Shown here: piece by piece, positions 16,598 through 32,420 of the stretch
Layout of the letters: each line of letters starts with the position of its first letter
Position numbering within the stretch: position 1 is the first letter of the stretch
Source of the DNA: Sulfurimonadaceae bacterium
GTDB taxonomy: Bacteria > Campylobacterota > Campylobacteria > Campylobacterales > Sulfurimonadaceae
Assembly: GCA_041562555.1 (NCBI GenBank)
Contig: JBFEXS010000014.1
Coordinates: 1 to 32,968 of the forward strand
Reading direction: 5' to 3'
DNA: 32,968 bases
The notes under the pieces: generated by a model
Told to the model about the DNA's origin: nothing
Databases searched by the model: none
What the model saw: only the letters and a program-made list of their open reading frames with translations
Position numbers and translations under genes: made by a program

Positions 16598-18253
16598 ATG
16601 ACAATGATGATAATTGAAGCACTTTCAGGTCTGGGCATTTTTCTATTCGGTATGGCCTATATGGAATCAGCACTTAAAGAGATGGCCGGTATCCGACTCA
16701 AGCGTTGGATAAAAAATTCTACGTCTACGACCTTCAAGGCGATCCTGACCGGTACAATAGTGACTGCAGCTTTGCAAAGTTCATCGGTGGTGACACTGTT
16801 GACACTCTCCTTTGTATCGGCTTCATTGATATCTCTGAGTTCGGGCATCGGCGTGATCTTCGGCTCTAATCTTGGGACAACGGTGACTGCCTGGATAGTG
16901 GCCACTTTGGGATTTAAGGTAAAGATCGAGCTTTTTGCCCTGCCGATGATAGGTGCAGGCGGTTTTGGATTGATCTTCTCAGCTAATCGGCATATTGTCG
17001 TGTTTTCGAAGGTCCTGATAGGTTTTGGGTTGCTTTTTTTTGGCTTGGAGCTGATGAAAGAGGCCATTGAGACGGTCGCCCAAAGTATTGATCTGGCGCA
17101 GTATATCTACCTGCCTCTTATCGTGTTTGTTTTACTGGGTCTTTTTATCACGGCTCTTATTCAGTCGAGTTCGGCTGCAACAGCGATTGTATTATCAGCG
17201 ATATATGCGAATATCCTCAGTTTTGACCAGGCGGCAGCCATGGTGATCGGTACGAATATCGGTACAACCGTGACGGCTTTATTGGGGAGTATTGGGGGTA
17301 TTCCCGATAAAAAAAGAGCAGCCGTAGCGCATCTGTTTTTTAATCTTCTGACGGCGATTGTCGCTTTTATGATACTTCCTTTTTCGACGAGCTTTTTATT
17401 GGATACCCTTGCATTAAAAGATGACCTTATCATCGCCCTGGCACTTTTTCATACTATCTTCAATCTCTTGGGAGTAGTGTTGCTGGCTTCTTTTATCCCA
17501 TTGATAGCACATTACCTTGAACGGCTTTTCAAGCATCAGCAACAAGTGGCAACAAAATATATACACAAGGTAGATGCACATATCCCTGATACTGCAATGG
17601 TCGCTCTGCGGGATGAGGTTAGCCGGCTTTTTTCAAAGACGATGAAGTTTGCACTTCTGGTGGCAAATATCAAACCCAATGATGTGCTTAAAAAGGGATA
17701 CGATGTGAAATCCGTTATAGAGCAAAATCCGATGAAGATCGACTTTGACCATCATAAGGCCTATGAGAAGATCAAAGAGATAGAGCTGAGCACCTTAGTC
17801 TTTACGAATATTTTGAACCAGCAAAACCTTACCCGTGACCAGAGTCATAAGCTTGATACGCTTATGACATCTATCCGGGAGAGTGTATATGCGGCAAAAC
17901 TGCTCAAGGATGTGCGAGAGAACATGAATGAGTTTTATGAGAGTGACAATAAAAGCATGCTCTATTTTTATAACGAACTCCGACAGAACCTGGCCTTTGC
18001 TTTGAATATTTTTCAGCATTATATCCAGGAGAGTTGGTCCCTTGAAGAGTGTAAGGAGAAATTCCAAAAAGCCCAAGACGCAAATAACCTGATCTTAAAA
18101 GAAGCGACATCGATGATGAGCAGTGACAGGATGAATAAAACAATGCTCATCTCACTGCTTAACACCAATCGCAGTGTTTATATTGCCATCACTTCCCTGT
18201 TCTCCGCTTCCAAAGGGGCAAGGGTACATTTTCTGTTGGAGCATGAGGAGTAG
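16598..18253 (+). CDS. Na/Pi cotransporter family protein (NptA/YjbB-like)
   Basis: Two QSSS...G(S/T)N(L/I)GTT repeats followed by a helical soluble C-terminal domain. Confidence 0.92.
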   Translation: MTMMIIEALSGLGIFLFGMAYMESALKEMAGIRLKRWIKNSTSTTFKAILTGTIVTAALQSSSVVTLLTLSFVSASLISLSSGIGVIFGSNLGTTVTAWIVATLGFKVKIELFALPMIGAGGFGLIFSANRHIVVFSKVLIGFGLLFFGLELMKEAIETVAQSIDLAQYIYLPLIVFVLLGLFITALIQSSSAATAIVLSAIYANILSFDQAAAMVIGTNIGTTVTALLGSIGGIPDKKRAAVAHLFFNLLTAIVAFMILPFSTSFLLDTLALKDDLIIALALFHTIFNLLGVVLLASFIPLIAHYLERLFKHQQQVATKYIHKVDAHIPDTAMVALRDEVSRLFSKTMKFALLVANIKPNDVLKKGYDVKSVIEQNPMKIDFDHHKAYEKIKEIELSTLVFTNILNQQNLTRDQSHKLDTLMTSIRESVYAAKLLKDVRENMNEFYESDNKSMLYFYNELRQNLAFALNIFQHYIQESWSLEECKEKFQKAQDANNLILKEATSMMSSDRMNKTMLISLLNTNRSVYIAITSLFSASKGARVHFLLEHEE

Positions 18254-18257
18254 CTCT

Positions 18258-19364
18258 TCAGGTGTTAAAGTCCTGGTTGAGAAGATAGTAGACAGCTCTT
18301 CCTTTTCCGTGGGATGTTAAAAAGCCTTTATGTGCCAGGTCACTCAGATCACGGGCTGCGGTAGGCTTGGAGGTGTTAAAACGCTGTGCATAATAGGCCG
18401 TCTTTAACTGTTTTTTTTGTATGCCGTCTTCCAAAAGGAGACCTAAGAGCGAGCGTTGCCGTGCATTAAGGACATAGGATTGCATCCCTTCGGCGATGAG
18501 GCGTTTATATCGCAGGGTCTGCACTCGCAATAGGGCATTTCCCAATGCATTTTCAAACATCATCAAGTACCACTCGACCCAGGATGAGATGTCCATAGTA
18601 TCAGCAGTACAGTTTTGATCGAGCATCTCATAATAACTCTGTTTCATAGCGTGAATTTCATGGGCCAGTGTGAATAGATTCGAGGGGGCAAGGTCGGATC
18701 CGGAGAGAATATAGTCGCTGATATCTCTGGCCAGACGCCGATTCCCGTCATCGAAGGGATGAATGAGTAGGAACCAGAGATGGGCAATAGCAGATTTGAT
18801 GATGGCATCGATTTGATGCTCCTCATTGATCCATGTCAGAAGCTGCTGCATCTGATCATTTACGGTGGACGCAGGAGGGGCGATATAATGAACGATCTCA
18901 TGATGCCACGTTCCGGAGATGATCTTTACCTCTCCCTCTTCTTCTGTCCGAAACGAGGCGATTCTGACAGGATGAGATAGGTGTTGTTCCTGAATAAACA
19001 TGGCTTGATGCCAGGCGAAAAGGCGCGCTTTGCTTAAGGGCTCATCAGTGCGTTTGGTGTCCAATAAGATATCTAAAAGGGATTCGGGTTTCGGATCACG
19101 ATTGCGTTGGGGGTTATTGGGTCTGAATCGGCTTTCCAGGGCAATCCTGAGGTGTTTAGGCTCTATATGATCCCCTTCCAAAAGAGAAGTGGCAATGGCT
19201 TCTTGATAGAGGGACTCTTTTTGTAACAACAGGTATTCCCGCTTAGACAGAGTGGTCTCCGCCATTTTGAGTTGGCCCAATTGATGATACAGATGATTGA
19301 GGTTCTTATGCCCATAAGTAAAGTCAGGCCATTGCCTGTGTTGCCATTTCCACACTTTTTTCAT
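18258..19364 (-). CDS. Fic family protein (DUF4172-like N-terminus, C-terminal HTH) with a variant catalytic motif
   Basis: WKWQHRQWPDF N-terminus, alpha-inh-like TSLLEG, HPFDDGNRRLAR and HTH SKPTAARDLSDL..KG..GKGRAVYY. Confidence 0.9.
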   Translation of the reverse strand: MKKVWKWQHRQWPDFTYGHKNLNHLYHQLGQLKMAETTLSKREYLLLQKESLYQEAIATSLLEGDHIEPKHLRIALESRFRPNNPQRNRDPKPESLLDILLDTKRTDEPLSKARLFAWHQAMFIQEQHLSHPVRIASFRTEEEGEVKIISGTWHHEIVHYIAPPASTVNDQMQQLLTWINEEHQIDAIIKSAIAHLWFLLIHPFDDGNRRLARDISDYILSGSDLAPSNLFTLAHEIHAMKQSYYEMLDQNCTADTMDISSWVEWYLMMFENALGNALLRVQTLRYKRLIAEGMQSYVLNARQRSLLGLLLEDGIQKKQLKTAYYAQRFNTSKPTAARDLSDLAHKGFLTSHGKGRAVYYLLNQDFNT

Positions 19365-19399
19365 CTGATAATCATATCAATATATGATTTGATTATCAA
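19365..19399 (-). promoter_or_regulatory. fic promoter (-35 TTGATA, 17 nt, -10 TATGAT) embedded in an inverted repeat
   Basis: -35 at 19399-19394, -10 at 19376-19371, ATG 6 nt later. Inverted repeat TGATAATCA (19366-19374) / TGATTATCA (19390-19398). Confidence 0.65.
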
Positions 19400-19472
19400 G
19401 TATCTTCTCTCTTTTCATGATTATGGGTTGGCTCGACAGGGGTGTAGACAAGGCTGTCTTATACATAGAATA

Positions 19473-19481
19473 TGCTAGAAT
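19473..19481 (+). promoter_or_regulatory. Extended -10 (TGcTAGAAT) upstream of the porin-like gene
   Basis: Consensus match ~85 nt upstream of the ATG at 19566. Confidence 0.4.
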
Positions 19482-19565
19482 AAGCAGATATGAATTTGTG
19501 CAGAAGATCTAGGTCTAACAATGTCTTTTCCATATTTGTAATACTTTTTTAGCAGGTGTATACCG

Positions 19566-20564
19566 ATGAAACGTTTTTTGTGTATATCTTATTTTTGTCT
19601 GGTCTCACTCTTTGCTTCAGAGTCGGAATATCAACTTGGACATGGCCTTAAATTAGGTGAACTTCCTTTGTATATGGGAGGTTATTTCTCTTTGGATTAT
19701 GAACATGGATACGGTAAGGAACGTGTACTTGAACTGGACGAATTAGCCATTATGTTCTATGGCGAGTATGAGCATCTCTCGTATATGTTGGAGTTGGAGG
19801 GAGAAGAGATATACCGTGAATCTTTTGGTGATAATGCCAATGCAAGTCATCAGGACCGTGTACATCTTGAACGGCTTTATGTCAATTATAACTTCAATGA
19901 CAACTACGATCTAAAGACAGGTAAGTTCAACTCGATTATAGGGTTATGGAACCAAAATCCCATCAATGTACTCAGAGACACGAGTTCTAACCCCCGTATT
20001 ACGGAGCAGATCTTTCCCAAGTTTACTACAGGGGCAGAGTTTAAATACCAGCAGTTTGGCGAGGATAGGTTTACCCTTCACCTTATGGTCCAAGAGAGTG
20101 AAGATATGGATGAACTCTTTAACAGAGACGAGGTTTACAACAATTTTGATACGAATCGTCATTATGGCATGGGAACTTCTTTTTTGTATAAGCAAACGCT
20201 TTTTCAGTTTAATGCAGGCTATTTTGAAGTCAAGCCTGATCAAGAGTATACCTATCTCCTCGGAGCATTCCAGTATGAGTTGGATACATTGCGACTGCAA
20301 GGAGAGTTTGGTTCGCAGTTTGACGATGATGAGACAGTCGCGACTTCAGGGTATCTTCAAGGGGTGTACCGTATCGTCCAAGATCATGAGGGAATCCTCC
20401 GAGTGGAGAGTTGTGATGATGAAAAGACAGGGATAAAAGACAGTTTTGGTGTATTTGGATATACCTATAGACCCTATTATTCCATTGCCATCAAGAGTGA
20501 GTACCAGTGGCACTCCTATAAAAAGGAGAATAAGTTTCTTCTTTCATTCTCGGCACTATTTTAG
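19566..20564 (+). CDS. Putative outer-membrane beta-barrel (porin-like) protein
   Basis: Signal peptide, alternating aromatic-rich beta strands, LERLYVNY/KTGKFNSIIGLWN and a C-terminal ...KSEYQ...LSFSALF with terminal Phe. Confidence 0.75.
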   Translation: MKRFLCISYFCLVSLFASESEYQLGHGLKLGELPLYMGGYFSLDYEHGYGKERVLELDELAIMFYGEYEHLSYMLELEGEEIYRESFGDNANASHQDRVHLERLYVNYNFNDNYDLKTGKFNSIIGLWNQNPINVLRDTSSNPRITEQIFPKFTTGAEFKYQQFGEDRFTLHLMVQESEDMDELFNRDEVYNNFDTNRHYGMGTSFLYKQTLFQFNAGYFEVKPDQEYTYLLGAFQYELDTLRLQGEFGSQFDDDETVATSGYLQGVYRIVQDHEGILRVESCDDEKTGIKDSFGVFGYTYRPYYSIAIKSEYQWHSYKKENKFLLSFSALF

Positions 20565-20566
20565 GG

Positions 20567-20989
20567 ATGCGTGCCATGATGAAAGCCTTAAGTGTCATGC
20601 TCGTACTTTTAAGTGCACTCAATGCTGAACCGTTTGTGCTTGTGACCCACCCCGATAGTCCGATAGAAAGTCTGGATGAATCGCAGGTCAAGATGATCTA
20701 TCTCAAACAAAGACGGTACTGGGAAGGGGTCAAGCTCAAACCGATCAACCTTGCCGCAGAGAGTGATGTGCGTCACTCCTTTGAAAAGAATATCTTGAAA
20801 ATGAGTCATGCTCAGCTGGAGAGCTATTGGCTGAAACAGCATTACAAGGGGCTTCGACCTCCATACAGAGTCGAATCGGTTCAGAGCCTGTTGATGTTCA
20901 TTCAAAAAGTCGAAGGTGCAATCGGGTATATTCCCATAAGCAGTGTGAATGATGAGGTAAAAGTCATATACAAAGAGCAGATACAATGA
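20567..20989 (+). CDS. Small periplasmic protein, PstS/phosphate-binding-like single domain (start may be 20576 or 20579)
   Basis: Signal peptide, LVTHPDSPIESL..QVKMIYL and EGAIGYI resemble short type-2 periplasmic-binding-fold proteins. Confidence 0.7.
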   Translation: MRAMMKALSVMLVLLSALNAEPFVLVTHPDSPIESLDESQVKMIYLKQRRYWEGVKLKPINLAAESDVRHSFEKNILKMSHAQLESYWLKQHYKGLRPPYRVESVQSLLMFIQKVEGAIGYIPISSVNDEVKVIYKEQIQ

Positions 20990-23073
20990 AGCTGTTACGA
21001 TGGATCTTGCCGCAAACGTTGAAGACAAAGCTCTTGATAGCGCTGTTCAGTGTCGGCTTCTTTCCTTATTTGCTTATTCTTATCTATAGTCAAAACCTGG
21101 GAAAAGAGAAGATCCTGGAGTCTACACTGACGACGCATCATCTACAGATACATCAGATGAAACAGCAGTTGGAATCCCAGATGGTCACGTTGCAAAAAGA
21201 GCTTGGGTTTTTAGCCTCTTTGGATATGATGAATGATATGCTTGTCGCAGATATCGACAAGCGAATCGCCCAACTGCTTGTGCAAAAACACAAGGACCTC
21301 TCCCTTGATGTACATCTGTTTGCAATCGATAGGGATCTTCAGATGGTCTCTTCTTCTGATACCGAAAAGATACATAGTTTTCATTATCACAAAAAATTTT
21401 TACAGGCACAACACGAGAAAAAGAAATACTTTTTTACTTATAAGAGTATTGTCATGTTTACCCCCATTCACGGTAGTTTTGAAAAAGAACAGGATTTGGG
21501 ATATATGTTTATGGAGTATGCTTTTTCTAACTTCAAGTCTTTTACCGTGGATAAATATGGAGTACGTTCTACCATCTATAGTCGTGACAATGCACAGCAG
21601 GTCGGGTACCAACTGGATGAGCCATTGCTACAGGCCATTGATGATCAGTCAACGTACATAAACAAGCAGTATGTCATCATCAAAGAAGGGTTTGAAGGAG
21701 TGCTTCAAGGATGGTTTATCGTCTATGTCATCCAAAAAACAGAGGCCTTTAAATTTCTAGATACTTTTGTATATCTTATTTGGGCGCTGTTCGGATTTGG
21801 TACAGTGATCATCGCATTGATAGCTTCCTGGATCAGTAAACGTATTCTAGAGCCGATCGCCAAGTTGACAAAAGCTACAAAGTCCATCATATCAACACAG
21901 GACTATACGACGCAGGTGACAATCGAATCACAGGGAGAGATCACTGAACTTGCCCATGATTTCAACAGTATGGTTCAGGCGACGAATCATGCTTTTAGTG
22001 TTCTTGAAGAGGAGAACAGACTTCGACTCCTTCGTTTTACACAGTTGATCAATATCTTTAATCATCTTATCTCAACACAAAGTGAACGGGAGTGTATCGA
22101 GGTGGTTATGGACGAACTTCATCGTCTGATGCCTGAAAAAAGATTTTCTTTCTCCAGTGAATATGATGCATCGGAGCATGAGATCCCTCCGATGCAATGC
22201 ATGATGCTCTTCGTCAAAGACTTTGAAAAGGATACAGACGAGTTCTATGGAAAGATCACTTCTGAGACAGGGGATGCATCACATGATCCGAATGAGAACA
22301 CCTTTTATCAATCAATCGCGACTATGATCATGTTACAGTTAAACCAAATACGCCTTATTGAACGTACTCAGGAAGTTTCACGGGCAAAATCTACGTTTAT
22401 CTCTTTGATGTCTCATGAACTTCGTACTCCTTTACACACCATATTGAGTGCAGCACAATATTTGATCGGATATGAGAACACGACCCCTCAGCAGCAGGAT
22501 AAGATAGCCATTATGGAGTCTTCAGCTGAGCATCTTTTAGGTATGATCAACGATATTTTGGACCTTGTACAGATAGAAGCGGGCAAGGTGACAGCCAATA
22601 TCGAAGTACAGCAAAGTACAGCGTTGTATCTATCGATCAAAGAGACGGTGGAGATGCTGGAGGTACTGGCTGAGGAAAAAGGAATTAGCTTGACATTGGA
22701 AAACCGGCTTGACAGGGAAGAAGATGTCTTGCTTGATAAGCGCTTGTGTAAACAGATCGTGATGAACCTTATCTCCAATGCGATCAAGTTTACGGACAGC
22801 GGTTCGATCGAGGTCAGACTTGGAAAGTGTGAGAAATATATTTGTGTTGAGATCAAAGACAGCGGAATCGGAATCAGCAGTGAGAACCTAAAACGACTTT
22901 TTGAGGATTTTACACAGGTGAAAAATCGCAGTCAGAATAAACACAAAGGGAGCGGTTTAGGCCTGGCAATAAGCAGAAAACTTGCCCATCTGTTCAAGGC
23001 AGAACTGACTTTGGAAAGTGATGGGGAAGGTAAAGGAACAAGGGCTATACTCCAATTAGAAACTAATCTCTGA
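20986..23073 (+). CDS. Membrane sensor histidine kinase (periplasmic domain, HAMP, HisKA, HATPase)
   Basis: Two TM helices, HAMP (EITELAHDFNSM), H-box MSHELRTPL, N-box NLISNAIKFT, G1 DSGIG and G2 GSGLGLAIS. Confidence 0.95.
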   Translation: MKLLRWILPQTLKTKLLIALFSVGFFPYLLILIYSQNLGKEKILESTLTTHHLQIHQMKQQLESQMVTLQKELGFLASLDMMNDMLVADIDKRIAQLLVQKHKDLSLDVHLFAIDRDLQMVSSSDTEKIHSFHYHKKFLQAQHEKKKYFFTYKSIVMFTPIHGSFEKEQDLGYMFMEYAFSNFKSFTVDKYGVRSTIYSRDNAQQVGYQLDEPLLQAIDDQSTYINKQYVIIKEGFEGVLQGWFIVYVIQKTEAFKFLDTFVYLIWALFGFGTVIIALIASWISKRILEPIAKLTKATKSIISTQDYTTQVTIESQGEITELAHDFNSMVQATNHAFSVLEEENRLRLLRFTQLINIFNHLISTQSERECIEVVMDELHRLMPEKRFSFSSEYDASEHEIPPMQCMMLFVKDFEKDTDEFYGKITSETGDASHDPNENTFYQSIATMIMLQLNQIRLIERTQEVSRAKSTFISLMSHELRTPLHTILSAAQYLIGYENTTPQQQDKIAIMESSAEHLLGMINDILDLVQIEAGKVTANIEVQQSTALYLSIKETVEMLEVLAEEKGISLTLENRLDREEDVLLDKRLCKQIVMNLISNAIKFTDSGSIEVRLGKCEKYICVEIKDSGIGISSENLKRLFEDFTQVKNRSQNKHKGSGLGLAISRKLAHLFKAELTLESDGEGKGTRAILQLETNL

Positions 23074-23725
23074 TTGTATAACCTACACCGCGAACGGTTG
23101 TGATAAAGTTCTCTATATTGATCTTTTTTCGCAGGTTTTTAATGTGAACATCAACGAGGTTACTTTGTTTAAACCCATCATATTCACGGCATAGATGCTC
23201 ATTAAGCTGATAGCGGGTGAGTACGACATTCTTGTTTTGTAGAAGGATCTCAAGAAGATCAAATTCGGATTGGCTCAGTTTGACGGGTTCACCTTGTAGG
23301 CGGACATCCCTGCTTGTGGTATCCAAGGTTAAGTCACCAATGGAGATGACGGTACTCTTATGGGGTGATTCACGTCTTAAAAGAGCTCTGATCCGTGCCA
23401 ATAGTTCTATGTTGGAGTAAGGCTTGCAGAGATAATCATCACCCCCTGCATCCAGTACACGGACACGATCATCTACCTGGGTATTGGCTGAGAGCATAAG
23501 TACGGGCGTACTCAAGCCATCTTCACGTATTGATCTGAGAAGACTAAGGCCATCTCCATCCGGCAGGTTCCAATCAAGTAGAATAAGGTCAAAACGCTTT
23601 TCATCAATATATTTCAAGGCGCTTTCATAGTCATAGGCAACATCACAATGATAATGCTCATGTTCAAGCAGTTGTTTGAGCTGATCTGCTATGGCAATCT
23701 CATCTTCTACGATCAGTAGATACAT
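23063..23725 (-). CDS. OmpR/PhoB-family response regulator
   Basis: LIVEDE, LLDWNLPDGDG, DDYLCKPY and wHTH VDVHIKNLRKK..TVRGVGY. Confidence 0.96.
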   Translation of the reverse strand: MYLLIVEDEIAIADQLKQLLEHEHYHCDVAYDYESALKYIDEKRFDLILLDWNLPDGDGLSLLRSIREDGLSTPVLMLSANTQVDDRVRVLDAGGDDYLCKPYSNIELLARIRALLRRESPHKSTVISIGDLTLDTTSRDVRLQGEPVKLSQSEFDLLEILLQNKNVVLTRYQLNEHLCREYDGFKQSNLVDVHIKNLRKKINIENFITTVRGVGYTIRD

Positions 23726-23854: not shown

Positions 23855-24892
23855 ATGCAACTCCCAACAAAAATACCTGTGCATCAGTGGGCGTTTTTAT
23901 TTCTGTTCGCCTCAGAGTTTACCTATTATCTACTGATACTGCAGACAGGTATCGTTGAGTATCACCATTCCCTTATGGAAGAGATATGGATAATCCCTGT
24001 AGGAGGGATCTTGGGTATTATCCTCTCCATAGCGGCACACAAAGAGCGTCAGTGGTTGATACCATCTTTATTGTTGATACAGTTGATCTTGTCTTTTGAT
24101 TATGCACATGCTGGTGTTCTTGAGTTGTTCGTACTCGGCCTCATCAGTGGATTGACCGCACCGATGCTGATCGCAAGAATAGACCATTTTTGGATGGTGA
24201 TCGCTGCCTTGGCCCTCTCATACAGTTACGGGACGTACTATTTTGATGTTCCTGCCCAAGATCGTACAGGCATTGCAGTTTTCCTGTCCCTGGTTGCTTT
24301 TACTACCTCTTTGTTCTCTCAGATGAAGCAGACAAAGAGCCAGACAACACAGATGACACTTTTTGGTGCGGGTACCATCTTTTTGTGGCTGCTTCTGGAT
24401 GCATCACTTTTTGAGACGCTTTCACGTAATGATATGATGAAGATATGGGGAGAAGGCAGTTTTACCTATAGTATCATCGCCTCACATATCCTTGGACTGG
24501 TAGCGGCGTACAAAGCCAGAGACTGGAAACATACAGAAGTTTTTTTATTGGGATTATTCACGGTGACCTATTTGGTGTATAGTATAGGTTGGCAATGGGG
24601 TTTAGGTGTGGTTTATCCGTTTGTGATTTCGTACTACAACGTGATTATCCTCAAGGAGCTGATGCGTCTGTCTTATGTACTATTGGCAGTGATGGCATTA
24701 AGCCTATGGATGGCTTCGGGCTCTGGGCTTATGATAGCACTATCGGGTTCTTTTGTCTCCGCCTGGATTGCACTGGGGGCATTGGGAGTGATCTATGTCT
24801 ATAAAAAACTGGATCTGCCTATGATGCAGATGGCAGAAGAGGTATTTTCACGTATACAGCTGTATATACAGGGTATGTATGAGATGAAATAA
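23855..24892 (+). CDS. Polytopic membrane protein of unknown function (about 12 short TM segments, possibly MFS-like)
   Basis: Almost entirely hydrophobic, with SD AAGGAG. No family motif recognised. Confidence 0.75.
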   Translation: MQLPTKIPVHQWAFLFLFASEFTYYLLILQTGIVEYHHSLMEEIWIIPVGGILGIILSIAAHKERQWLIPSLLLIQLILSFDYAHAGVLELFVLGLISGLTAPMLIARIDHFWMVIAALALSYSYGTYYFDVPAQDRTGIAVFLSLVAFTTSLFSQMKQTKSQTTQMTLFGAGTIFLWLLLDASLFETLSRNDMMKIWGEGSFTYSIIASHILGLVAAYKARDWKHTEVFLLGLFTVTYLVYSIGWQWGLGVVYPFVISYYNVIILKELMRLSYVLLAVMALSLWMASGSGLMIALSGSFVSAWIALGALGVIYVYKKLDLPMMQMAEEVFSRIQLYIQGMYEMK

Positions 24893-24943: not shown

Positions 24944-25471
24944 ATGAAAAAGTTTTTATTACTTGTTGCCATGAGTGTGTCAGTACTGATGGGAGGCAAT
25001 CTCAGTGTAGTCACGGGTGTTGTGAAAGCACATACCGAGGTCTTTGGTGATTCACAGATAGACCCTGAAACCAGCGGTATTACATCGCATTTGAGTATAG
25101 CAGAGGGTATCGAATCGTTGAGCGGTTCAGTTGACATTTCTATGAAAGGCCTTAGAAGCGATGAAGAGAGCCGGGATGAGAATATGATGGAGACGATCGA
25201 AAGTGAGAAGTTCCCTTTTGCCACCTATACACTCACAAAAGTTGAAAAAGTCGAAATCGGTTACCTGATTCATGGAGTTCTGGATTTTCACGGAGTGAAA
25301 AATCCATTGACGATGGTCGTAGACATCGAGCAAGAGGGTAAAACAGTGATGATCAAAGGCAAGAGCTCGTTTAAGATGTCAAGTTTTGGTGTTGAACCTC
25401 CTGTTCTTCTGTTTTTGACGGTGCGCGATAAGGTTGATATCATTGTCGATGCAACATTTAAAGAGGAGTAA
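24944..25471 (+). CDS. YceI-like periplasmic lipid/polyisoprenoid-binding protein
   Basis: Signal peptide, SDEESRDENM, EKFP.ATY, GVLDFHGVKNP and MSSFGVEPP. Confidence 0.85.
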   Translation: MKKFLLLVAMSVSVLMGGNLSVVTGVVKAHTEVFGDSQIDPETSGITSHLSIAEGIESLSGSVDISMKGLRSDEESRDENMMETIESEKFPFATYTLTKVEKVEIGYLIHGVLDFHGVKNPLTMVVDIEQEGKTVMIKGKSSFKMSSFGVEPPVLLFLTVRDKVDIIVDATFKEE

Positions 25472-25479
25472 GAACACGG

Positions 25480-26550
25480 ATGTTCAAATCCTTTTTAAAG
25501 TATAGGTACAAGACGAGTCTGATCCTGATTTCGGCGACGGCGGCTATTGCATCGATCTTCCTTATTACGGCTTTAGGCAACGGTATCATCAGCATGTATG
25601 CATCCATGCTTAAAACAGACGGGGACATCATTGTGATGCAAAAGGGCGTTGCGGATACTTTTTTCAGCGATGTTGACCGTTCGTTGATAGACCCTATATC
25701 AAAGATAGAAGGTGTCAAAGAGGCACAGGGTGTCATCGTGGGTGTCGGTGCTATCGGAGCAGTCCCTATTGCCGGCATCTATGGGGTGACACAAAACCGT
25801 TTGTCAAACTATACCTTGAGTCAGGGAAGCTATCCCAAAGAGGGTGAAGTGATGGTGGGTGACACCGTTGCATCCATATTGAAGCGTCCGGAGGTCATTA
25901 CCTTGCTCGGGACGGATTTTCAGGTATCGGGTATCTATGAAAGTGATATCGGTTTCGAAAATGGCGGTGTCGTCATTCCTATAGGTGATGCGCAAAAGCT
26001 CTTCAAGAAGAGTGCTTCATTCTTGCTGGTATCTCTGGAGGATATTCAAAAAGATAATGAAGTGATCATTCGTCAGATTCAATCTCTGAATGAAGGAATA
26101 GAGGTAAAATCCACTACGGAGTTTATTGACAATTATAATCAGTTTAAGATCATACGTATTTCCAGCGGCGTCATCGCTTCGATCTCTTTTTTTATGGGGT
26201 TTTTGGCTATCGTGAGTCTCATGAGTATGATGATCAATGACAGACGGTATGAATTTGGTATCAAGCGGGCAGTCGGAATCTCAAAGTCACGCATAGTACT
26301 GCACATCGTGGTGGAGGTCATCGTGTTGACCCTGATAGCATTTGTCCTGGCCTACGGTATCAGTCTTGTTTTACTGGAGCAGCTTCAGCATATTGAGAAG
26401 TTTCAAGGCTATCTTAGCGGACGGATCGATATGGTGCTTTTCATAGAGCTTCTTCTTGGTTCGGTAAGCATGGCATTGATAGGAGCACTTATTCCTGCAC
26501 TACTTGCTGCACGGGTAGATCCTATTATATTGATCAACAGGGGCCAGTAG
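25480..26550 (+). CDS. ABC transporter permease, MacB/FtsX/LolE type
   Basis: TM1, periplasmic domain, then DRRYEFGIKRAVG and PALLAARVDP. Confidence 0.9.
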   Translation: MFKSFLKYRYKTSLILISATAAIASIFLITALGNGIISMYASMLKTDGDIIVMQKGVADTFFSDVDRSLIDPISKIEGVKEAQGVIVGVGAIGAVPIAGIYGVTQNRLSNYTLSQGSYPKEGEVMVGDTVASILKRPEVITLLGTDFQVSGIYESDIGFENGGVVIPIGDAQKLFKKSASFLLVSLEDIQKDNEVIIRQIQSLNEGIEVKSTTEFIDNYNQFKIIRISSGVIASISFFMGFLAIVSLMSMMINDRRYEFGIKRAVGISKSRIVLHIVVEVIVLTLIAFVLAYGISLVLLEQLQHIEKFQGYLSGRIDMVLFIELLLGSVSMALIGALIPALLAARVDPIILINRGQ

Positions 26551-27162
26551 ATGATAGAGATGAAGCATGTCAGTCATGACTATGATCAGGAACGTATATT
26601 ACATAATATCACCCTGCATATCCCTGATGATCAATTTACGGTGATTACCGGTGAAAGCGGGAGTGGGAAGTCCACCCTGCTCTCGATAATCTCTACATTG
26701 TTGAATCCGACAGAGGGTGAGCTTCTGTTCGACGGAAAGTCGGTAGAGGATTTGGGCAATATCAATCATTTCCGCAATCAGGAGATAGGTTTTGTCTTTC
26801 AGTTCCATTATCTGATCTCGCATCTGACAGTCTATGAGAACATTGCTATGGTCACACAGCGCCCCAAAGAGGAAATTGATGCACTGTTGGATCGCCTCGA
26901 TATCGCACAACTGCAACATAAATATCCTGATCAGATATCCGGTGGCCAGCGTCAACGTGCTGCGATTGCCCGTGCCGTTATCAACCAGCCCAAATATATC
27001 TTTGCAGATGAGCCTACGGGAAACTTGGATTCTAAAAACTCGGACAAGGTGTTTGAATTATTACGAAGTCTCGATGCTACGGTCATCGTAGCCACCCATG
27101 ACCACTCTCACATCAGATCAGACGATACGATTATCTCCCTGAAGGATGGACACTTATGTTAA
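26551..27162 (+). CDS. ABC transporter ATP-binding protein, LolD/MacB type
   Basis: GESGSGKST, GFVFQFHYL, ISGGQRQR and ADEPTGNLD. Confidence 0.95.
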   Translation: MIEMKHVSHDYDQERILHNITLHIPDDQFTVITGESGSGKSTLLSIISTLLNPTEGELLFDGKSVEDLGNINHFRNQEIGFVFQFHYLISHLTVYENIAMVTQRPKEEIDALLDRLDIAQLQHKYPDQISGGQRQRAAIARAVINQPKYIFADEPTGNLDSKNSDKVFELLRSLDATVIVATHDHSHIRSDDTIISLKDGHLC

Positions 27163-28712
27163 AGAGACACATCTCTATCTCGTACGTTTTTTTAATTTTG
27201 GCTGCCTTATTTGGCCTGGTATATGCATTTCAGTTGATTGATATCGGTACAGGGCTAATGCGCCCGGACATTGCACGTAGCTTGCACATCTCACTGATGT
27301 TGTACGGATTTATGCCGTTGATGCTGTCGGTACTTCCTTTTGCCTTGTTTGACAAAGAGAATATTCTTAAAGATGAGGCCCTGGGGTATTTAGAAAAGTA
27401 TTTCATGCTCTGGTATGTCTTTTTAGTATTTATGATCATCTCACTACTTGCCGGGAATACACGCGCACTTCCTTTTTATGATTTTCCGTATGCGCTAAAC
27501 GGCATTCTTGCCTTTGCCGGTGTATTTTATATCATTGCACTTTTCAAGAGTATCCAACACTACGCCGTCAAACCGCTGTGGGTAAAGGTGTCTCTTGTAT
27601 TGGTGACGATCAGTCCGTTTATGCTTTTACTCCTTATGAACCCTGAATACGGCCAGGTCGAACAGATGCATTACGGGCCACACGGGGACAATACCCTGGG
27701 TATGAGCTTTGCCCTGATGGCGATCTATTACCTTGCGATCAAGCTTTCTTCGCCCAAGGTCTCTTTTGAGACTCGTTGGCATATCCTTTGGATCATCCCT
27801 CTCGGGTTTTATCTGCTCAGTGTCTTGTATCGAAGTTTTATAGGACCTATCAGTTATGAAGCGGAGTGGTTCTTACAGTATCTGACACTTCTGTATATCC
27901 CGACACTGTATCGATGGTGGAAGGATGCAGGCTTGAATATAAAAACACATATGACGCTCTTTATCTCCATCGTGGCATTTATTTTGATCGATGTGGAAGG
28001 AAACATTCTGTTTATCCCTGAGCTTCGGGCAATTTTTCACCGCAATGACCTGGTTGTCGGACATTCACATATTGCGGTAGGAATAGGATTACTGTTTCTT
28101 GCTTTTGCCATTGTCGAGTCCTATTTTAAATTATCTCTGATCAAGCGTTACGGATTGGTCCTTACGCTTGGTTTGATGTCACTCGTGCTTAGTATCAGCG
28201 GGTTCTCGCAAGCAGGATATATCGAGACAGACATCATGTCGATGTGGCAGTGGCGAACATTTTTTGGTTTACTTTTTTTTATTATTGTTGTACTGTCAAG
28301 CGGATATATACAGAGTAAGGACCTGCGTCAGCTAACGCCTTTGAAGCTGTATCATTTGGTCGCCTTCAGTTCCGATGGATTGGGTGGTCTGATGTTGATC
28401 TTCTTTGGGGAAGCACTGTTTTCCTTAATCGGACAGGCTTTTGTAGGTAGCTATCAGTATATTGTCTTTGGTTTTGTAGCAGGTGTCGGAATATCGCACC
28501 TTATCGGATATCTGTTTGCGGCGTATGCTCATTCTATGGGTCTGGCGACATCCGTTATTCGAATTATAACTGCAGCAGGTTTTTTCGCGCTTTATCAGGC
28601 GGGAACATTGGGATGGATCGCCTTAGTGATCTCAGCTTTTGACCTTGCTTTTGCCCTGGTCTATTTACTTTATTTACAAAAGGACAATCATGAAAAAACT
28701 CGTGTGGCTTAG
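27156..28712 (+). CDS. Divergent heme-copper oxidase subunit I-like (cbb3 CcoN-like) membrane protein lacking the helix-VII His-His pair, with a C-terminal extension of about 4 TM helices
   Basis: RSLH44 resembles CcoN RPLH; YGPH176GDNTLG resembles YGHNAVG; EGN..FHRNDLVVGH303SH305 resembles EGP..SHYTDWTIGHVH; SGFSQ and WRTFFG resemble helices XI and XII. Confidence 0.78.
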   Translation: MLKRHISISYVFLILAALFGLVYAFQLIDIGTGLMRPDIARSLHISLMLYGFMPLMLSVLPFALFDKENILKDEALGYLEKYFMLWYVFLVFMIISLLAGNTRALPFYDFPYALNGILAFAGVFYIIALFKSIQHYAVKPLWVKVSLVLVTISPFMLLLLMNPEYGQVEQMHYGPHGDNTLGMSFALMAIYYLAIKLSSPKVSFETRWHILWIIPLGFYLLSVLYRSFIGPISYEAEWFLQYLTLLYIPTLYRWWKDAGLNIKTHMTLFISIVAFILIDVEGNILFIPELRAIFHRNDLVVGHSHIAVGIGLLFLAFAIVESYFKLSLIKRYGLVLTLGLMSLVLSISGFSQAGYIETDIMSMWQWRTFFGLLFFIIVVLSSGYIQSKDLRQLTPLKLYHLVAFSSDGLGGLMLIFFGEALFSLIGQAFVGSYQYIVFGFVAGVGISHLIGYLFAAYAHSMGLATSVIRIITAAGFFALYQAGTLGWIALVISAFDLAFALVYLLYLQKDNHEKTRVA

Positions 28713-29142
28713 CCTGATGTGTGCAGTAGGACTGTATGCACGTTTGGAGGTGGAAAAGGATTTTCCGGCGATCACCCTTCCGGATCAATTTGAAAAACAA
28801 CATACGATTTCTAAGGATCAAAAGATAATCATCATGGCCTTTGAAAAGGATATCTCGGTGGCGGTAAATGACTTCCTCAAAGAGAAGCCTTCAGGCTATC
28901 TGGATGAACACCATGCCAAGTATATCTCCGATATCAGTTCGATGCCATCTGTGATCACATGGATGTTTGCGATGCCAAAGATGAAAAAATACCCGTTTTC
29001 GCTGATGCTGATCAATGATGATTCGGGCAAGCAGTTCGATAGAGAAGCAGGGAAAATAACGGTGTATAGACTCCGGGAACAGGAGATCAGGTCCATAGAG
29101 TTTATTTCACCGAAAGATATCGCTTCGATTTTTAAAGAGTAA
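28690..29142 (+). CDS. Exported thioredoxin-like-fold protein without CxxC (YtfJ/ATP10-like)
   Basis: SD AAGGA then ATG 28690 (MKKLVW signal peptide). FPAITLPDQF resembles AhpC/TSA N-termini; the mature part has no Cys. Confidence 0.65.
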   Translation: MKKLVWLSLMCAVGLYARLEVEKDFPAITLPDQFEKQHTISKDQKIIIMAFEKDISVAVNDFLKEKPSGYLDEHHAKYISDISSMPSVITWMFAMPKMKKYPFSLMLINDDSGKQFDREAGKITVYRLREQEIRSIEFISPKDIASIFKE

Positions 29143-29160: not shown

Positions 29161-29182
29161 GTATGTCGGATACACTCCGACA
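29161..29182 (+). repeat. GTAT-led palindrome (REP-like) between convergent genes
   Basis: GTA-TGTCGGA-TACAC-TCCGACA. Confidence 0.5.
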
Positions 29183-29190
29183 AGGCCATG

Positions 29191-29207
29191 AAGGGCTTTC
29201 CCTTTTT
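29191..29207 (+). terminator. Weak intrinsic terminator candidate
   Basis: AAGGG-CTTT-CCCTT followed by T residues, downstream of the six-gene operon. Confidence 0.35.
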
Positions 29208-29233: not shown

Positions 29234-31168
29234 TTAGGAATCATAATCCCTTAATGTCAGTGGTAAACGCAGAGTCGCTGCGACAGCATGAAGGATCTCC
29301 ATGTCAAAGTGGGAGATATTGTCATCTTCGCTTAAACAGGTGACGACCATCTGAAGGACTTTCTTTCGTACCGGTGCCTTTGCCTGTGAGATCAAGGAAA
29401 TCGATTTGTCAAGTTGTGTGTAATCGATGCTCTCAAAAGCAATGAAGCGTAAGATATCGATTCCGGCCGCCTTTGTCGCTGCATCAAAGAAGTGTTTGGC
29501 TTTGTCGTTGTCTAATGTCTGTGTGCGTGTCAATATGGAGAGAAAGGTCTGGACTTCACCTGTGATGTCTCGTATGTGATTGTAGGTCTCTTTTGTCGGT
29601 TTTTTCAAGGCAAAGGATATATCCAACGGATTCAATACAATGTGTTTGAGGTTCCATTCGAAAAAAGAGATCTGATCATCCATATCGATAAAGGCGATGG
29701 CAAAAGCTCTGAACTGTCTGTATTGTTGCAAAGACATCATCTTTAAAGAGCTGATGCTCAGCTGCATCAGATGCAGACGTGTACTGTGGGAGAGAGATTT
29801 AAGAAGGGTAAATGCCTCCTCCGTTTTTTCCAGCAGCCTGAGAGGGGTATGCTCAAGGAGCTGAAGTTGTCTTTCACGAATTGTATGAAAATCACTGCAT
29901 AATAAGGCGAGGATGACGGCTTGTGCACTGAGTGGGTTCTTCGTCATCTCCTGCAGCTGTGCAGGCAGGGAATGTAGGATAGAGGCGGCTTCATCGATCT
30001 GTTGGGGAGAGGGTTGCCCGATATGCTCGATACTTTCGAGTGCGGTAGCAACAGCCACCGTCTGCATTATCTTCCTTTTGCGTTCTTCCGGTTGATAATG
30101 TCTGGCAGTTTTACGGGTGGTTTTTTTTGGCGTAATAAAACTGCCGTTCCAGCGGGGGTCAATCCTTAGGATGCGCTCTTTCAGGGGAGGGTGTGTAGAA
30201 AAGAGGTTGTCCCAAAAGTCCTTGACACCGTCAGAAAAATAGAGATGACTGAAGGTGCCGGCTGCGGGGGTCTTGATCACAGATCCACCGGCATGGCCAC
30301 CTATCTTTTTCAGTGCATTGGCAATACCATCGGGATAGCGTGTAAACTGTACTGCAGAGGCGTCAGCGAGGTATTCACGCTGTTGACTGATCAGTGCTTT
30401 GATCCATTCGCCCACCGTTGTACCAACTGCTCCGATCACAGTGAAGCCTATACCGATAAGGACAATAGCGCCAACGGCATCACCGCCTTTTTTATTATTA
30501 CTTCCCCGACTGGATCGGACTTTCACATTATCCAGTGCATTGAGTATTCCCCGACCGATGAGCCCTATTAGCAAGATTCCATGCAATAATCCCGTAATAT
30601 GGAGGTTTAGACGCATGTCCCCATTGAATATATGACTGAATTCATGGGCGATGACCCCTTGAAGTTCTTCTCTGTTGAGAAGTTCGACAGAGCCTTTTGT
30701 AATTCCGATCACAGCATCTTCATAGCTTAATCCCGCGGCAAAGGCATTGATACCGGGTTGATCGAGTATATAGATCGGAGGTGCCGGTATACCGGAAGCG
30801 ATAGCCATCTCATCGACTACGTTAATCAGTATACGTTCTTGTTCATCGGAGGTATTTGAAGGCAGTAGCCTTCCTCCAAGGGCTTCAGCGACAACGTGTC
30901 CTCCCGAAGAAAGCTGGTTGAGTTTATAGATACTTCCCAGCGCAACAATCGCGATGACAATGCCCGAAGCCTTGTAAAAGTGTTCCCACGCAAATAGTTG
31001 CATGAGCTGACCTGGGGAGACAACCAGTTCTCCCGTGTTGTAATAGGCCAGTACCATCAATAAAAAGATATTCGTCACAAGGATGATACCGCCTACTCCC
31101 GATAAGAAGAGAAGATGCAATACAAAGGTGCTCTGCCTAGCCTTTCTCTGTGCCTCAAAAAAGTTCAT
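29234..31168 (-). CDS. M48 family zinc metallopeptidase (long HtpX-like form with C-terminal helical extension)
   Basis: INAFAAG, GVIAHEFSH (HExxH), REYLADASAV and THPPLKERI. Confidence 0.93.
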   Translation of the reverse strand: MNFFEAQRKARQSTFVLHLLFLSGVGGIILVTNIFLLMVLAYYNTGELVVSPGQLMQLFAWEHFYKASGIVIAIVALGSIYKLNQLSSGGHVVAEALGGRLLPSNTSDEQERILINVVDEMAIASGIPAPPIYILDQPGINAFAAGLSYEDAVIGITKGSVELLNREELQGVIAHEFSHIFNGDMRLNLHITGLLHGILLIGLIGRGILNALDNVKVRSSRGSNNKKGGDAVGAIVLIGIGFTVIGAVGTTVGEWIKALISQQREYLADASAVQFTRYPDGIANALKKIGGHAGGSVIKTPAAGTFSHLYFSDGVKDFWDNLFSTHPPLKERILRIDPRWNGSFITPKKTTRKTARHYQPEERKRKIMQTVAVATALESIEHIGQPSPQQIDEAASILHSLPAQLQEMTKNPLSAQAVILALLCSDFHTIRERQLQLLEHTPLRLLEKTEEAFTLLKSLSHSTRLHLMQLSISSLKMMSLQQYRQFRAFAIAFIDMDDQISFFEWNLKHIVLNPLDISFALKKPTKETYNHIRDITGEVQTFLSILTRTQTLDNDKAKHFFDAATKAAGIDILRFIAFESIDYTQLDKSISLISQAKAPVRKKVLQMVVTCLSEDDNISHFDMEILHAVAATLRLPLTLRDYDS

Positions 31169-31175
31169 CTAGGTA

Positions 31176-31766
31176 TTAAAACTCAATCTTTGGCGCATCT
31201 TGCATCTGAACTGAATCATCGAATTCAAGCATTGCCGCATCGTTTGGATGTCCAAAGCTCGTGCTGAAAAGCACTTGAGGGAATGACTGACGGTAGGTAT
31301 TATAGGACATGACGGAGTCGTTGTAAAACTGTCGTGCGAAGGCGACCTTGTTTTCAGTTGTAGCGACTTCCTCATGCAGTTTGATCATGTTTTCGTTGGC
31401 CTTGAGATCAGGATAGTCCTCCATGACAAAATTCAGTTTTCCCAGAGCACCTACGAGGCCTTGCTCTGCTTGGGCCAGTCCTTCGATCATAGCCGGGTCA
31501 GATGGGTCTTTTGTCGCTTGTGAGAGGCTTTTGGAAGCGAGATTACGTGCAGAGATGACTGCTTCAAGTGTCTCACTCTCATGTTTGAGGTAGCCCTTCG
31601 CGATCTCCACAAGGGAGGGGATAAGGTCATAGCGGCGTTTGAGCTGTACCTCAATCTGTGCAAATCCATTAAGATAATGGTTTTTGAGGGCAACTAAACG
31701 ATTGTATATGTTCATGATATATAATCCAAGTGCAAAAAGGATCACAACGGTAATGATAGTGGACAT
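31176..31766 (-). CDS. lemA: LemA family protein
   Basis: N-terminal TM, YNRLV, QLKRRYDLIP, YPDLKAN, ENKVAFARQFYND. The start at 31766 has SD GGAG; the ORF-track start at 31805 is probably too long. Confidence 0.95.
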   Translation of the reverse strand: MSTIITVVILFALGLYIMNIYNRLVALKNHYLNGFAQIEVQLKRRYDLIPSLVEIAKGYLKHESETLEAVISARNLASKSLSQATKDPSDPAMIEGLAQAEQGLVGALGKLNFVMEDYPDLKANENMIKLHEEVATTENKVAFARQFYNDSVMSYNTYRQSFPQVLFSTSFGHPNDAAMLEFDDSVQMQDAPKIEF

Positions 31767-31889
31767 AAGCTTGCTCCATACGTGGTTTTTATAGATTATA
31801 GTCAATCTATTATTAAATCAAATATAACATAGGCCGGTCTAAATCTGTGGCTATACCAGACCTGTCCGGCGTGAAGAAGGGGTCTCCGC

Positions 31890-32420
31890 TTAAAGAAGTT
31901 TTTGGATATCTGCTTCGATCTCGCGCGGCTTGACAGAGGGGGCATATCGCATGATCACTTGTCCTTTTTTGTCTACAAGAAACTTGGTGAAGTTCCATTT
32001 GATCGTGTCAACGACAAATCCCTCTGCGTGTTCTTTTAAATAGACATAGAGTGGATGCGTGTTATTACCATTGACATCAATCTTGGAAAACATGTCAAAA
32101 CTCACACCAAAGTTGCTCATGCAGAAGTTTTTGATCTCTTCTTCTGTACCGGGTTCCTGAGATAGAAACTGATTGCAGGGAAAGCCCAGGACGCTCAGAC
32201 CCTTGTCTTCATATTTTTCGTGCAGGGTTTGTAAACCTTTATATTGTCCGGTGTATCCGCATTTGCTGGCGACGTTGACAATCAACATAACGCGGCCTCG
32301 GTATTTGTCCATAGACAGGGTTTTCCCGTCGATATCTTTGACGTGAATGTCATATATGCTCATTTGGTCTCCTGCGATTAGATTGAGGCAAAGTAGTAAT
32401 ATAGGAACAATGTACTTCAT
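31890..32420 (-). CDS. gpx: Cys-type glutathione peroxidase family protein with a signal-peptide-like N-terminus
   Basis: VNVASKCGYT, GFPCNQF..QEPG and WNFTKFLV. No in-frame TGA. Confidence 0.95.
   Translation of the reverse strand: MKYIVPILLLCLNLIAGDQMSIYDIHVKDIDGKTLSMDKYRGRVMLIVNVASKCGYTGQYKGLQTLHEKYEDKGLSVLGFPCNQFLSQEPGTEEEIKNFCMSNFGVSFDMFSKIDVNGNNTHPLYVYLKEHAEGFVVDTIKWNFTKFLVDKKGQVIMRYAPSVKPREIEADIQKLL

Follow-up and report, generated by a model that had tools for sequence, protein, structure and literature searches.

The window analyzed here, 32,968 nucleotides of DNA from a Sulfurimonadaceae bacterium (Campylobacterota; contig JBFEXS010000014.1 of assembly GCA_041562555.1), carries a gene for a 518-aa membrane protein that resembles the catalytic subunit of heme-copper oxidases (HCOs). 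This HCO-like gene, HCOL, lies at 27156..28712 on the forward (+) strand, as do all features below unless stated otherwise, and its start overlaps the stop of an ATP-binding cassette (ABC) ATPase gene by 7 nt. An earlier note, made from the sequence without database searches, placed the start of the open reading frame (ORF) correctly at 27156 and its end wrongly at 28310; the true end is 28712, and 28310 is residue 385, the end of the 12-helix core. The product has 16 helices, of which the first begins at residue 2 in the model and the last four form a C-terminal extension to the core (aa 386-518; 28314..28709). This extension contains invariant Asp407, His448, Arg469, and Asp496, is missing from CcoN and NorB, and gave no credible family when compared alone with Pfam. 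HCOL contains 14 His, lacks Cys and, as the earlier note had observed, has no HH dipeptide. HCOL descends from an HCO catalytic subunit and, on alignment, appears to keep the low-spin and high-spin heme histidines, with both heme sites intact; none of the three canonical CuB/FeB histidines is found at its aligned position.

Conservation is given throughout for an alignment of 80 sequences (the window protein and 79 loci; L081, whose motif-containing ORF is 420 aa, was left out). His44 (27285..27287; 80/80) aligns with the helix II His of the low-spin heme. A signature loop with the start of helix VI, M161-S184 (MNPxYGQVE....GPHGDNTLGMS; 27636..27707), is nearly invariant and includes His176-Gly177-Asp178 (27681..27689), in which His176 and Asp178 are each found in 80/80 and Asp178 aligns with the CuB/FeB His of helix VI. 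Tyr219 of helix VII (27810..27812) is invariant, and Tyr225-Arg226...Gly230-Pro231 (27828..27848) replaces His-His at the periplasmic end of the same helix. Further downstream, FHRNDLVVGHSH (28038..28070) holds His295, Arg296, Asp298, His303, and His305, all invariant, with His303/His305 the helix X heme ligands by alignment. The codons that the earlier note gave for His44 (27285), His176 (27681), His303/His305 (28062, 28068), and Tyr225-Arg226 (27828-27833) are right.

The 12-helix subunit I fold, nearest to the cbb3/cNOR branch, is established by Pfam COX1, profile-profile, Foldseek, and VIA matches. COX1 (PF00115) matched aa 4-385 over profile positions 5-404 of 436 with an E value of 2.5e-4 and 20.5 bits, below the gathering score (34.8), and a precomputed PF00115 match was present in 26 of the 120 homologues among the matches listed. 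No NCBIfam family, hence no ccoN model, matched at E ≤ 1, and a search of PDB sequences gave nothing at E ≤ 10. In profile-profile comparison by hhalign, 24 family sequences matched the CcoN of HCOL's own genome at E 4.3e-5, and 80 family sequences did so globally at E 1.4e-8 (probability, 94.7%), pairing family residues 1-398 with CcoN residues 11-491; against 30 CcoN sequences the values were 3.8e-7 (global) and 5.3e-5 (local). An AlphaFold2 model built on 24 sequences (mean predicted local distance difference test [pLDDT] score, 83.8; pTM, 0.82) retrieved cbb3 CcoN chains first in Foldseek (E 4e-7 to 1e-5, TM 0.55-0.63), followed by ba3 oxidase and the nitric oxide reductase (NOR) cNOR. In VIA, whose matches cover model residues 1 to ∼390, cNOR 4xyd_A (Z 28.1), cbb3 3mk7_D (27.4), and cNOR 3o0r_B (27.3) tied, and scores were clearly lower for qNOR (about 21-23) and A-type oxidases (about 19-21). 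The earlier description of a cbb3 CcoN-like protein therefore holds for the HCO fold, but the match to cbb3 is no better than that to cNOR.

Ligand positions were assigned from four alignments (three hhalign runs and MAFFT L-INS-i), with the own-genome CcoN numbered by alignment to Pseudomonas stutzeri CcoN, whose residue numbers and ligand roles we take as given. All four placed His44 at the helix II heme His and His303/His305 at the helix X HxH, so that the retention of these residues proposed in the earlier note stands (80/80). The hhalign runs also paired His295 with the His eight residues before the helix X pair and Glu281 with the helix IX "EG" glutamate. The same note took His176 for the retained helix VI His; the position of the helix VI CuB His is instead Asp178 in 4/4 alignments (GPHGDNTLG versus WWFGHNAVG), and His176 lies two residues upstream, at the helix VI N-cap in the model (helix 177-198).

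Helix VII is aligned less consistently, because of a length difference of 5 to 6 residues: the equivalents of His-His are Gly230/Pro231 by hhalign versus Leu224/Tyr225 by MAFFT. Helix VII of the model spans 209-228, and a former His-His site near 224-226 would therefore be structurally reasonable. The equivalent of the cbb3 cross-link Tyr is Tyr219 in two hhalign runs, Tyr225 in the third, and Phe218 by MAFFT, and the cross-link partner His of that Tyr is Asp in HCOL. Of two earlier proposals for this helix, the loss of His-His is borne out across the family (0/80 at the helix VII end), but Tyr-Arg as its equivalent is one of three competing alignments; likewise, a cbb3 Tyr retained as Tyr219 agrees with two hhalign runs but not with the other two alignments. 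The safe statement, as far as alignment can carry it, is that the helix VII end region has no His-His and that Asp occupies the helix VI position.

HCOL is a tightly conserved family of its own, confined to mostly environmental Campylobacterota. In a word-indexed search, 596 proteins reached E ≤ 1e-3 among the 8,000 candidates scored; the 120 matches listed were 47 to 100% identical and mostly 500 to 537 aa and full length, and the source names among them included Sulfurovum, Hydrogenimonas, Malaciobacter, and Sulfuricurvum. When the family profile was run exhaustively against 1.84 billion representatives, only 73 matches reached E ≤ 1e-3, namely, five full-length family clusters, a remainder consisting mostly of fragments, and a distant tail (E 7e-6 to 5e-4) of other odd HCO-like proteins. 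With the signature loop as the search pattern, relatives were found in 196 stretches (species genomes) of a species-level genome set, of which 80 loci were kept for context and conservation counts. Their names are of Campylobacterota type in 76 cases and unspecific in 2, and the other 2 are metagenome-assembled genomes labelled Paceibacteria or Pseudomonadota with the same operon. Among 201 sampled genomes of the phylum, 11 encode HCOL, and neither HCOL nor the neighboring major facilitator superfamily (MFS)-fold gene described below occurs in the two largest families sampled (0/64 and 0/83); by contrast, CcoN was present in 56 of the 61 genomes of one sample. A few copies are interrupted: HCOL has 2 in-frame TGA codons in G004 and an ORF of only 420 aa in Sulfurospirillum cavolei (L081), and the MFS gene has 1 TAA in G166 and is split in two in G070.

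At 95 positions of the alignment, no more than one of the 80 sequences deviates. Those found in 80/80 include H44, M161-N162-P163, G166-Q167-V168, G174 through S184 (GPHGDNTLGMS), Y219, Y234, E237, and W238, as well as H295, R296, D298, H303, H305, D407, H448, R469, and D496. Arg226 is present in 78/80 (Lys in the other 2), and Glu281 is Glu in 70 and Gln in 10. An HH occurs somewhere in 7/80 sequences and at the periplasmic end of helix VII in none, so a loss of His-His limited to the window protein, with close homologues retaining it, does not describe the family. The interrupted copies in a few genomes, including the 420-aa ORF of S. cavolei, might suggest a decaying, functionless duplicate of ccoN or norB. 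Family-wide conservation rules out local decay, and the general form of this explanation is rejected as highly improbable on the same ground: 596 proteins match, most of the 120 listed are full length, 95 positions and a 24-residue loop are all but fixed, the operon is kept in two gene orders, and the sequences form a monophyletic clade on a long stem.

The substitutions at the end of helix VII follow a pattern. Position 225 is Tyr in 48 sequences, His in 18, Ile in 12, Cys in 1, and Glu in 1, and His230 is present in each of the 12 sequences that have Ile225; position 225 or 230 thus carries Tyr, His, Cys, or Glu in 80/80. It follows that a polar, ligand-capable side chain seems to be required there and to be movable between neighboring positions, and the pattern speaks for a polar group with a function in what was the copper pocket. 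Tyr, His, Cys, and Glu are classical metal-ligand side chains. A binuclear center could accordingly have been kept, in which a non-heme metal (Fe or other) would be bound by His176, Asp178, Tyr/His225 (or His230), and perhaps Glu281, making HCOL a quinol-dependent NO (or O2) reductase one step beyond gNOR. Such a site would account for the invariance of His176 and Asp178 (80/80 each), with Asp178 at the CuB-His position, for the constant presence of one of four ligand types at 225/230, for the presence of at least one His at 225, 230, or 231 in 43/80, and for the retention (E70/Q10) of the helix IX "EG" Glu, which is conserved in the CcoN sequences compared. The earlier note proposed a di-heme protein without a canonical binuclear center; that no binuclear center of any kind is present would be too strong a claim, because the invariant His176/Asp178 pair and the residues at 225/230 could bind metal. 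Its alternative ligands fared unevenly: Asp178 is invariant, but His172 (5/80) and His209 (29/80) are not conserved and are therefore not plausible ligands. Against a retained metal, none of positions 225, 230, and 231 is His in 37/80, including the window protein, which would supply only His, Asp, and Tyr ligands, and the conserved pocket Arg would be unusual beside a cationic metal. We consider a metal center of this kind rather unlikely.

In a quick IQ-TREE tree of 24 rows (10 of the 80 family cores, 6 of the 30 CcoN sequences, 2 cNOR, 1 gNOR, and 5 distant matches), which covered neither A-family, B-family, nor qNOR sequences, the HCOL family grouped together in one clade with a long stem (SH-aLRT, 99), which CcoN, cNOR, and gNOR did not join. 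It stood beside other noncanonical sequences with a support of 93, a placement that carries a long-branch warning. The proposal that HCOL is neither a standard oxidase nor a standard NOR, and that it forms a separate branch, agrees with this tree, and the first part follows from the family-wide absence of His-His, the lack of a CcoO/CcoP-type gene, and the presence of a normal ccoNOP elsewhere in the genome.

The survey of Murali et al. 2024 (PMC11214002) distinguishes 12 HCO families plus NOD and N2Ored and describes the active-site histidines as completely conserved in all families except gNOR, the first to replace one of them. Its authors consider the His-to-Asp change in gNOR compatible with NO reduction (PMC11214002), which would favor a retained metal site in HCOL as well. 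In the genome table of that paper, Malaciobacter mytili is listed only with C=1 and cNOR=1 and Malaciobacter halophilus only with C=1. Both encode HCOL (P0114 and L025, respectively), and because the table has no count for it, the family appears to have been missed by the models used there. The gNOR counts given for some Campylobacterota in the same table represent a different gene. One such gene (L203, in G091) encodes a 565-aa gNOR-like protein with WWGLDLVADG and SHH motifs, its helix VI His replaced by Asp, and G091 holds this gene, cNOR (L200), CcoN, and HCOL together. A second cNOR (L199) was found in an HCOL-bearing genome, G009; both cNORs have HLWVE and GHH motifs. With cNOR and gNOR-like genes also in HCOL genomes, there are up to four HCO paralogues per genome, and the fact that several HCOL genomes already encode cNOR and/or gNOR speaks against HCOL as a metal-containing NO reductase. 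The identification of HCOL as gNOR was ruled out: it lacks HH, is apart from L203 in the tree, and is not counted as gNOR in the table. No description of the HCOL family or operon was found in a literature search of open-access papers and bioRxiv, which left subscription journals outside its scope.

Among the distant matches, P0184 (707 aa) combines a CcoN-like core with FixO and cbb3-type cytochrome c domains in one polypeptide. It keeps the helix II His and the helix X HAH, has Gln at the aligned helix VI position (EGQNILG) and no His-His, and, as a CuB-less HCO, still has c-type cytochrome domains (CxxCH). P0186, P0188, and P0192 (GC-rich; 419 to 572 aa; weak or no COX1 match) have NPxSGGATG at the start of helix VI, HAH on helix X, and no CuB histidines, and seem to represent sister lineages in other phyla; the alignment of P0186 extends to the four C-terminal helices that HCOL has beyond the core. 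A further polytopic protein (L204, a 431-aa frame in G070:C1), from an Arcobacteraceae-type genome that also has HCOL, gave a very weak COX1 match (20 bits; profile positions 308-401).

HCOL is the fifth gene of a six-gene operon (MFS-fold protein, YceI, permease, ATPase, HCOL, and p167, with gaps of 51, 8, 0, −7, and −23 nt). The first gene (23855..24892) encodes a 345-aa membrane protein with no Pfam family, whose model (pLDDT, 90.1) has only MFS proteins as top Foldseek matches (G6PT, VMAT2, GLUT, and NorA; E about 1e-4, TM 0.55-0.64). It is followed by genes for a periplasmic YceI-like protein (24944..25471), a MacB/FtsX-type ABC permease with MacB_PCD and FtsX domains (25480..26550), whose closest solved relatives are MacB type, and a LolD/FtsE-like ABC ATPase (26551..27162). 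The last gene, p167 (28690..29142), overlaps the end of HCOL by 23 nt and encodes a 150-aa secreted protein; a terminator-like hairpin with a T-rich tail, identified by consensus match only, follows at 29182..29199. Between 23855 and 28712, the MFS-fold protein, YceI, permease, and HCOL contain no Cys and the ATPase contains one. An OmpR-type response regulator (23063..23725, − strand) is divergent from the operon, and a sensor histidine kinase with HAMP, HisKA, and HATPase domains and a weak dCache match lies at 20986..23073.

Across the 80 loci, HCOL was accompanied by the ATPase in 77, MFS in 76, YceI in 76, the permease in 74, p167 in 57, and the response regulator in 48; neighbor clustering agreed with these counts, and several loci are cut by contig ends. 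One gene set occurs in two gene orders. The Sulfurovum type has the order of the window, and the Arcobacteraceae type reads permease-ATPase-HCOL-MFS-YceI-p167, after which many loci continue with a metallophosphoesterase (47 loci), response regulator (46), and kinase (39); an MBL-fold hydrolase replaces the metallophosphoesterase in 20 loci. The accessory hydrolase of the 47 loci is a calcineurin-like phosphoesterase. Examples of such accessory metallo-hydrolase genes after the operon are L034:10469-11197, L003:9830-10744, and L206:3491-4057; the window has none. The combination of an HCO-fold protein with a MacB-type pump, YceI, and an MFS-fold protein was not found in the literature search.

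No partner typical of a terminal oxidase or NOR accompanies HCOL. CxxCH was absent from the 10 proteins of the locus that were checked, so the operon has no gene of the CcoO/CcoP type, which, as the earlier note pointed out, a cbb3 oxidase needs; canonical ccoNOP lies elsewhere in the genome. No gene for a c-type cytochrome or cupredoxin-like subunit was found among the conserved neighbors of the 80 loci, nor were nor, nir, or nos genes conserved around the operon, the latter being a further point against NO reduction at a retained metal. The loss of the CuB/FeB histidines and the conserved operon with transporters indicate that HCOL is probably not an ordinary respiratory enzyme; the operon is an accessory module and not the oxidase of the organism.

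Several features of the neighborhood could also be explained without catalysis, with HCOL as a heme-binding electron relay, a sensor, or a handling subunit of the transporter module. The residue at 225/230 could supply a sixth ligand to the second heme, or a lipophilic molecule (quinone, porphyrin, or polyprenyl lipid) could be extracted or shuttled with the MacB-type pump, YceI, and MFS protein, as LolCDE passes its cargo to LolA. This would be consistent with the translational coupling of ATPase and HCOL (an overlap of 7 nt here and of 6 to 43 nt in most loci), with the strict co-occurrence of HCOL and the MFS-fold gene (the same 11 of 201 genomes), and with the accessory metallo-hydrolase genes in 47 and 20 of the 80 loci. 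The existence of other CuB-less HCO-like lineages (P0184, P0186, P0188, and P0192) points the same way, since a copper-independent role therefore recurs. Conversely, the extreme conservation of H176, D178, N179, T180, Y219, R226, H295, R296, and D298 suggests a catalytic or binding pocket more than a wire, and no fused, longer forms of HCOL were found at E ≤ 1e-5, which is weak evidence against such a subunit. A nonenzymatic role seems unlikely. An apparent ATPase-HCOL fusion, a 748-aa frame in G091, was rejected, its upstream part being out-of-frame read-through of a GC-rich region and its real start MLKTRL. A heme-efflux pump with its two-component system (HrtBA/HssRS-like) was also considered and set aside; the relatives of the permease are generically MacB type, and nothing specific supported it.

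The secreted protein p167 gave weak thioredoxin-fold leads, and its single Cys lies inside the signal peptide. Complex prediction for HCOL and mature p167 (score, 0.00; mark, 0.32) speaks neither for nor against binding. Relatives of p167 in metagenome contigs had HCOL nearby in 24 of the 37 loci with enough flanking DNA; in the other 13 (within L145-L171), the gene stands alone in unrelated, variable contexts, which therefore give no functional lead. The ESM Atlas contains a large Pseudomonadota cluster of p167 look-alikes automatically named "FAD/FMN-containing dehydrogenase," probably a misnomer for a secreted protein of ∼150 aa. On the other side of the terminator-like hairpin, genes for an M48 peptidase (644 aa) and LemA, an adjacent pair, and then glutathione peroxidase (29234-32420, − strand) run toward the operon, whose conserved neighbors do not include them. 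Upstream of the kinase (16598-20989 and 18258-19364) are a Na/Pi cotransporter and a Fic/DOC protein with DUF4172 (− strand), together with a weak phosphate-porin-like protein and a 140-aa protein without a family.

Our best guess is a copper-free, quinol-linked di-heme enzyme. We tentatively favor, as quite possible, a di-heme b protein that is fed by menaquinol and acts on a small oxidant at a remodeled pocket under two-component control. HCOL would be a di-heme b cytochrome whose copper pocket has been rebuilt from His176, Asp178, Tyr219, Tyr/His225 (or His230), and Arg226. It would most likely exchange electrons with menaquinol, as suggested by the lack of a cytochrome c partner and by the neighboring isoprenoid-binding YceI protein; the YceI family binds polyisoprenoids and quinones. 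A small oxidant might then be reduced at the high-spin heme with the aid of acid-base residues rather than copper, so that HCOL would be more akin to a heme peroxidase or detoxifying reductase than to a proton-pumping oxidase. The module may be an inducible one of the cell envelope, with transporters that move the substrate, product, or a lipophilic cofactor.

Several points weigh against this copper-free, quinol-linked enzyme. Heme binding by HCOL is predicted from alignment, and residues 168-178 of the signature loop have a pLDDT of <50 in the AlphaFold2 model. The proposed quinol link draws on the YceI neighbor and on the general ligands of its family. The conservation pattern could also be explained by a sixth heme ligand or by a non-heme metal site that has been kept, and the transporters may point to a nonenzymatic role. 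Finally, interrupted copies in some genomes suggest that the module is dispensable in some lineages.

A bolder proposal is that HCOL represents a new functional HCO-derived class: a copper-free, cytochrome-c-independent, quinol-driven catalytic core in which the high-spin heme would act together with a pocket of His, Asp, Tyr, and Arg or with a His-Asp-Tyr metal site for which there is no precedent. Its substrate would be neither O2 nor NO but, for example, peroxide, superoxide, or an oxyanion of N or S, and the MFS, MacB-ABC, and YceI module would be dedicated to its trafficking needs. HCOL would be the first HCO family shown to lack all three active-site histidines. Taken as a whole, this proposal is possible but doubtful.

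The family is conserved in at least 196 species genomes, with the heme ligands kept and the aligned positions of all three active-site histidines replaced, and it has no count in the genome table of the 2024 survey (PMC11214002). If HCOL is active, the respiratory HCO scaffold supports a wider chemistry than that of its known families and provides a natural experiment on heme chemistry in which neither CuB nor FeB takes part. The link with a MacB-type pump, YceI, and an MFS protein may point to a new envelope function in sulfur-oxidizing Campylobacterota of vents, sediments, and sulfidic waters.

HCOL can be compared with several known systems. With cbb3 CcoN (C-family; 3mk7 and 6xkw), it shares the 12-helix core (Foldseek E 4e-7, TM 0.57/0.62; VIA Z 27.4 over 370 aligned aa, rmsd 4.4) and the aligned helix II His, helix X HxH, His295, and helix IX "EG" glutamate; unlike CcoN, to which it is about 14% identical, it has Asp for the helix VI His, no helix VII His-His, four extra C-terminal helices, and no CcoO/CcoP genes beside it. 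The NorB subunit of cNOR (3o0r and 4xyd) belongs to the same superfamily branch and matches equally well (Z 28.1 and 27.3 over 375 aligned aa, rmsd 4.1), but HCOL lacks its three His, the Glu four residues after the helix VI His, any HLWVE-type or GHH motif, and a NorC gene. Like HCOL, qNOR (3ayf and 6l3h; Z about 21-23) is an HCO that consists of one polypeptide and has no cytochrome c as a second subunit; in contrast to HCOL, qNOR has an N-terminal NorC-like domain and a His3-Glu FeB site, and the VIA match to its chains begins at qNOR residue ∼280. Asp in place of the helix VI His is shared with gNOR (PMC11214002), for which the authors of that paper proposed quinol oxidation. Unlike HCOL, gNOR is described there as retaining His-His, having a cupredoxin-like subunit II, and descending from the B-family (PMC11214002). 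The permease, with its MacB_PCD and FtsX domains and MacB-type relatives, resembles those of MacB/LolCDE-type ABC systems with a periplasmic lipid carrier; we know of no such system with an HCO-fold protein or with this MFS-fold protein. In Escherichia coli, yceI-yceJ sets YceI beside a cytochrome b561, so that YceI there adjoins a membrane di-heme protein, as it does with HCOL.

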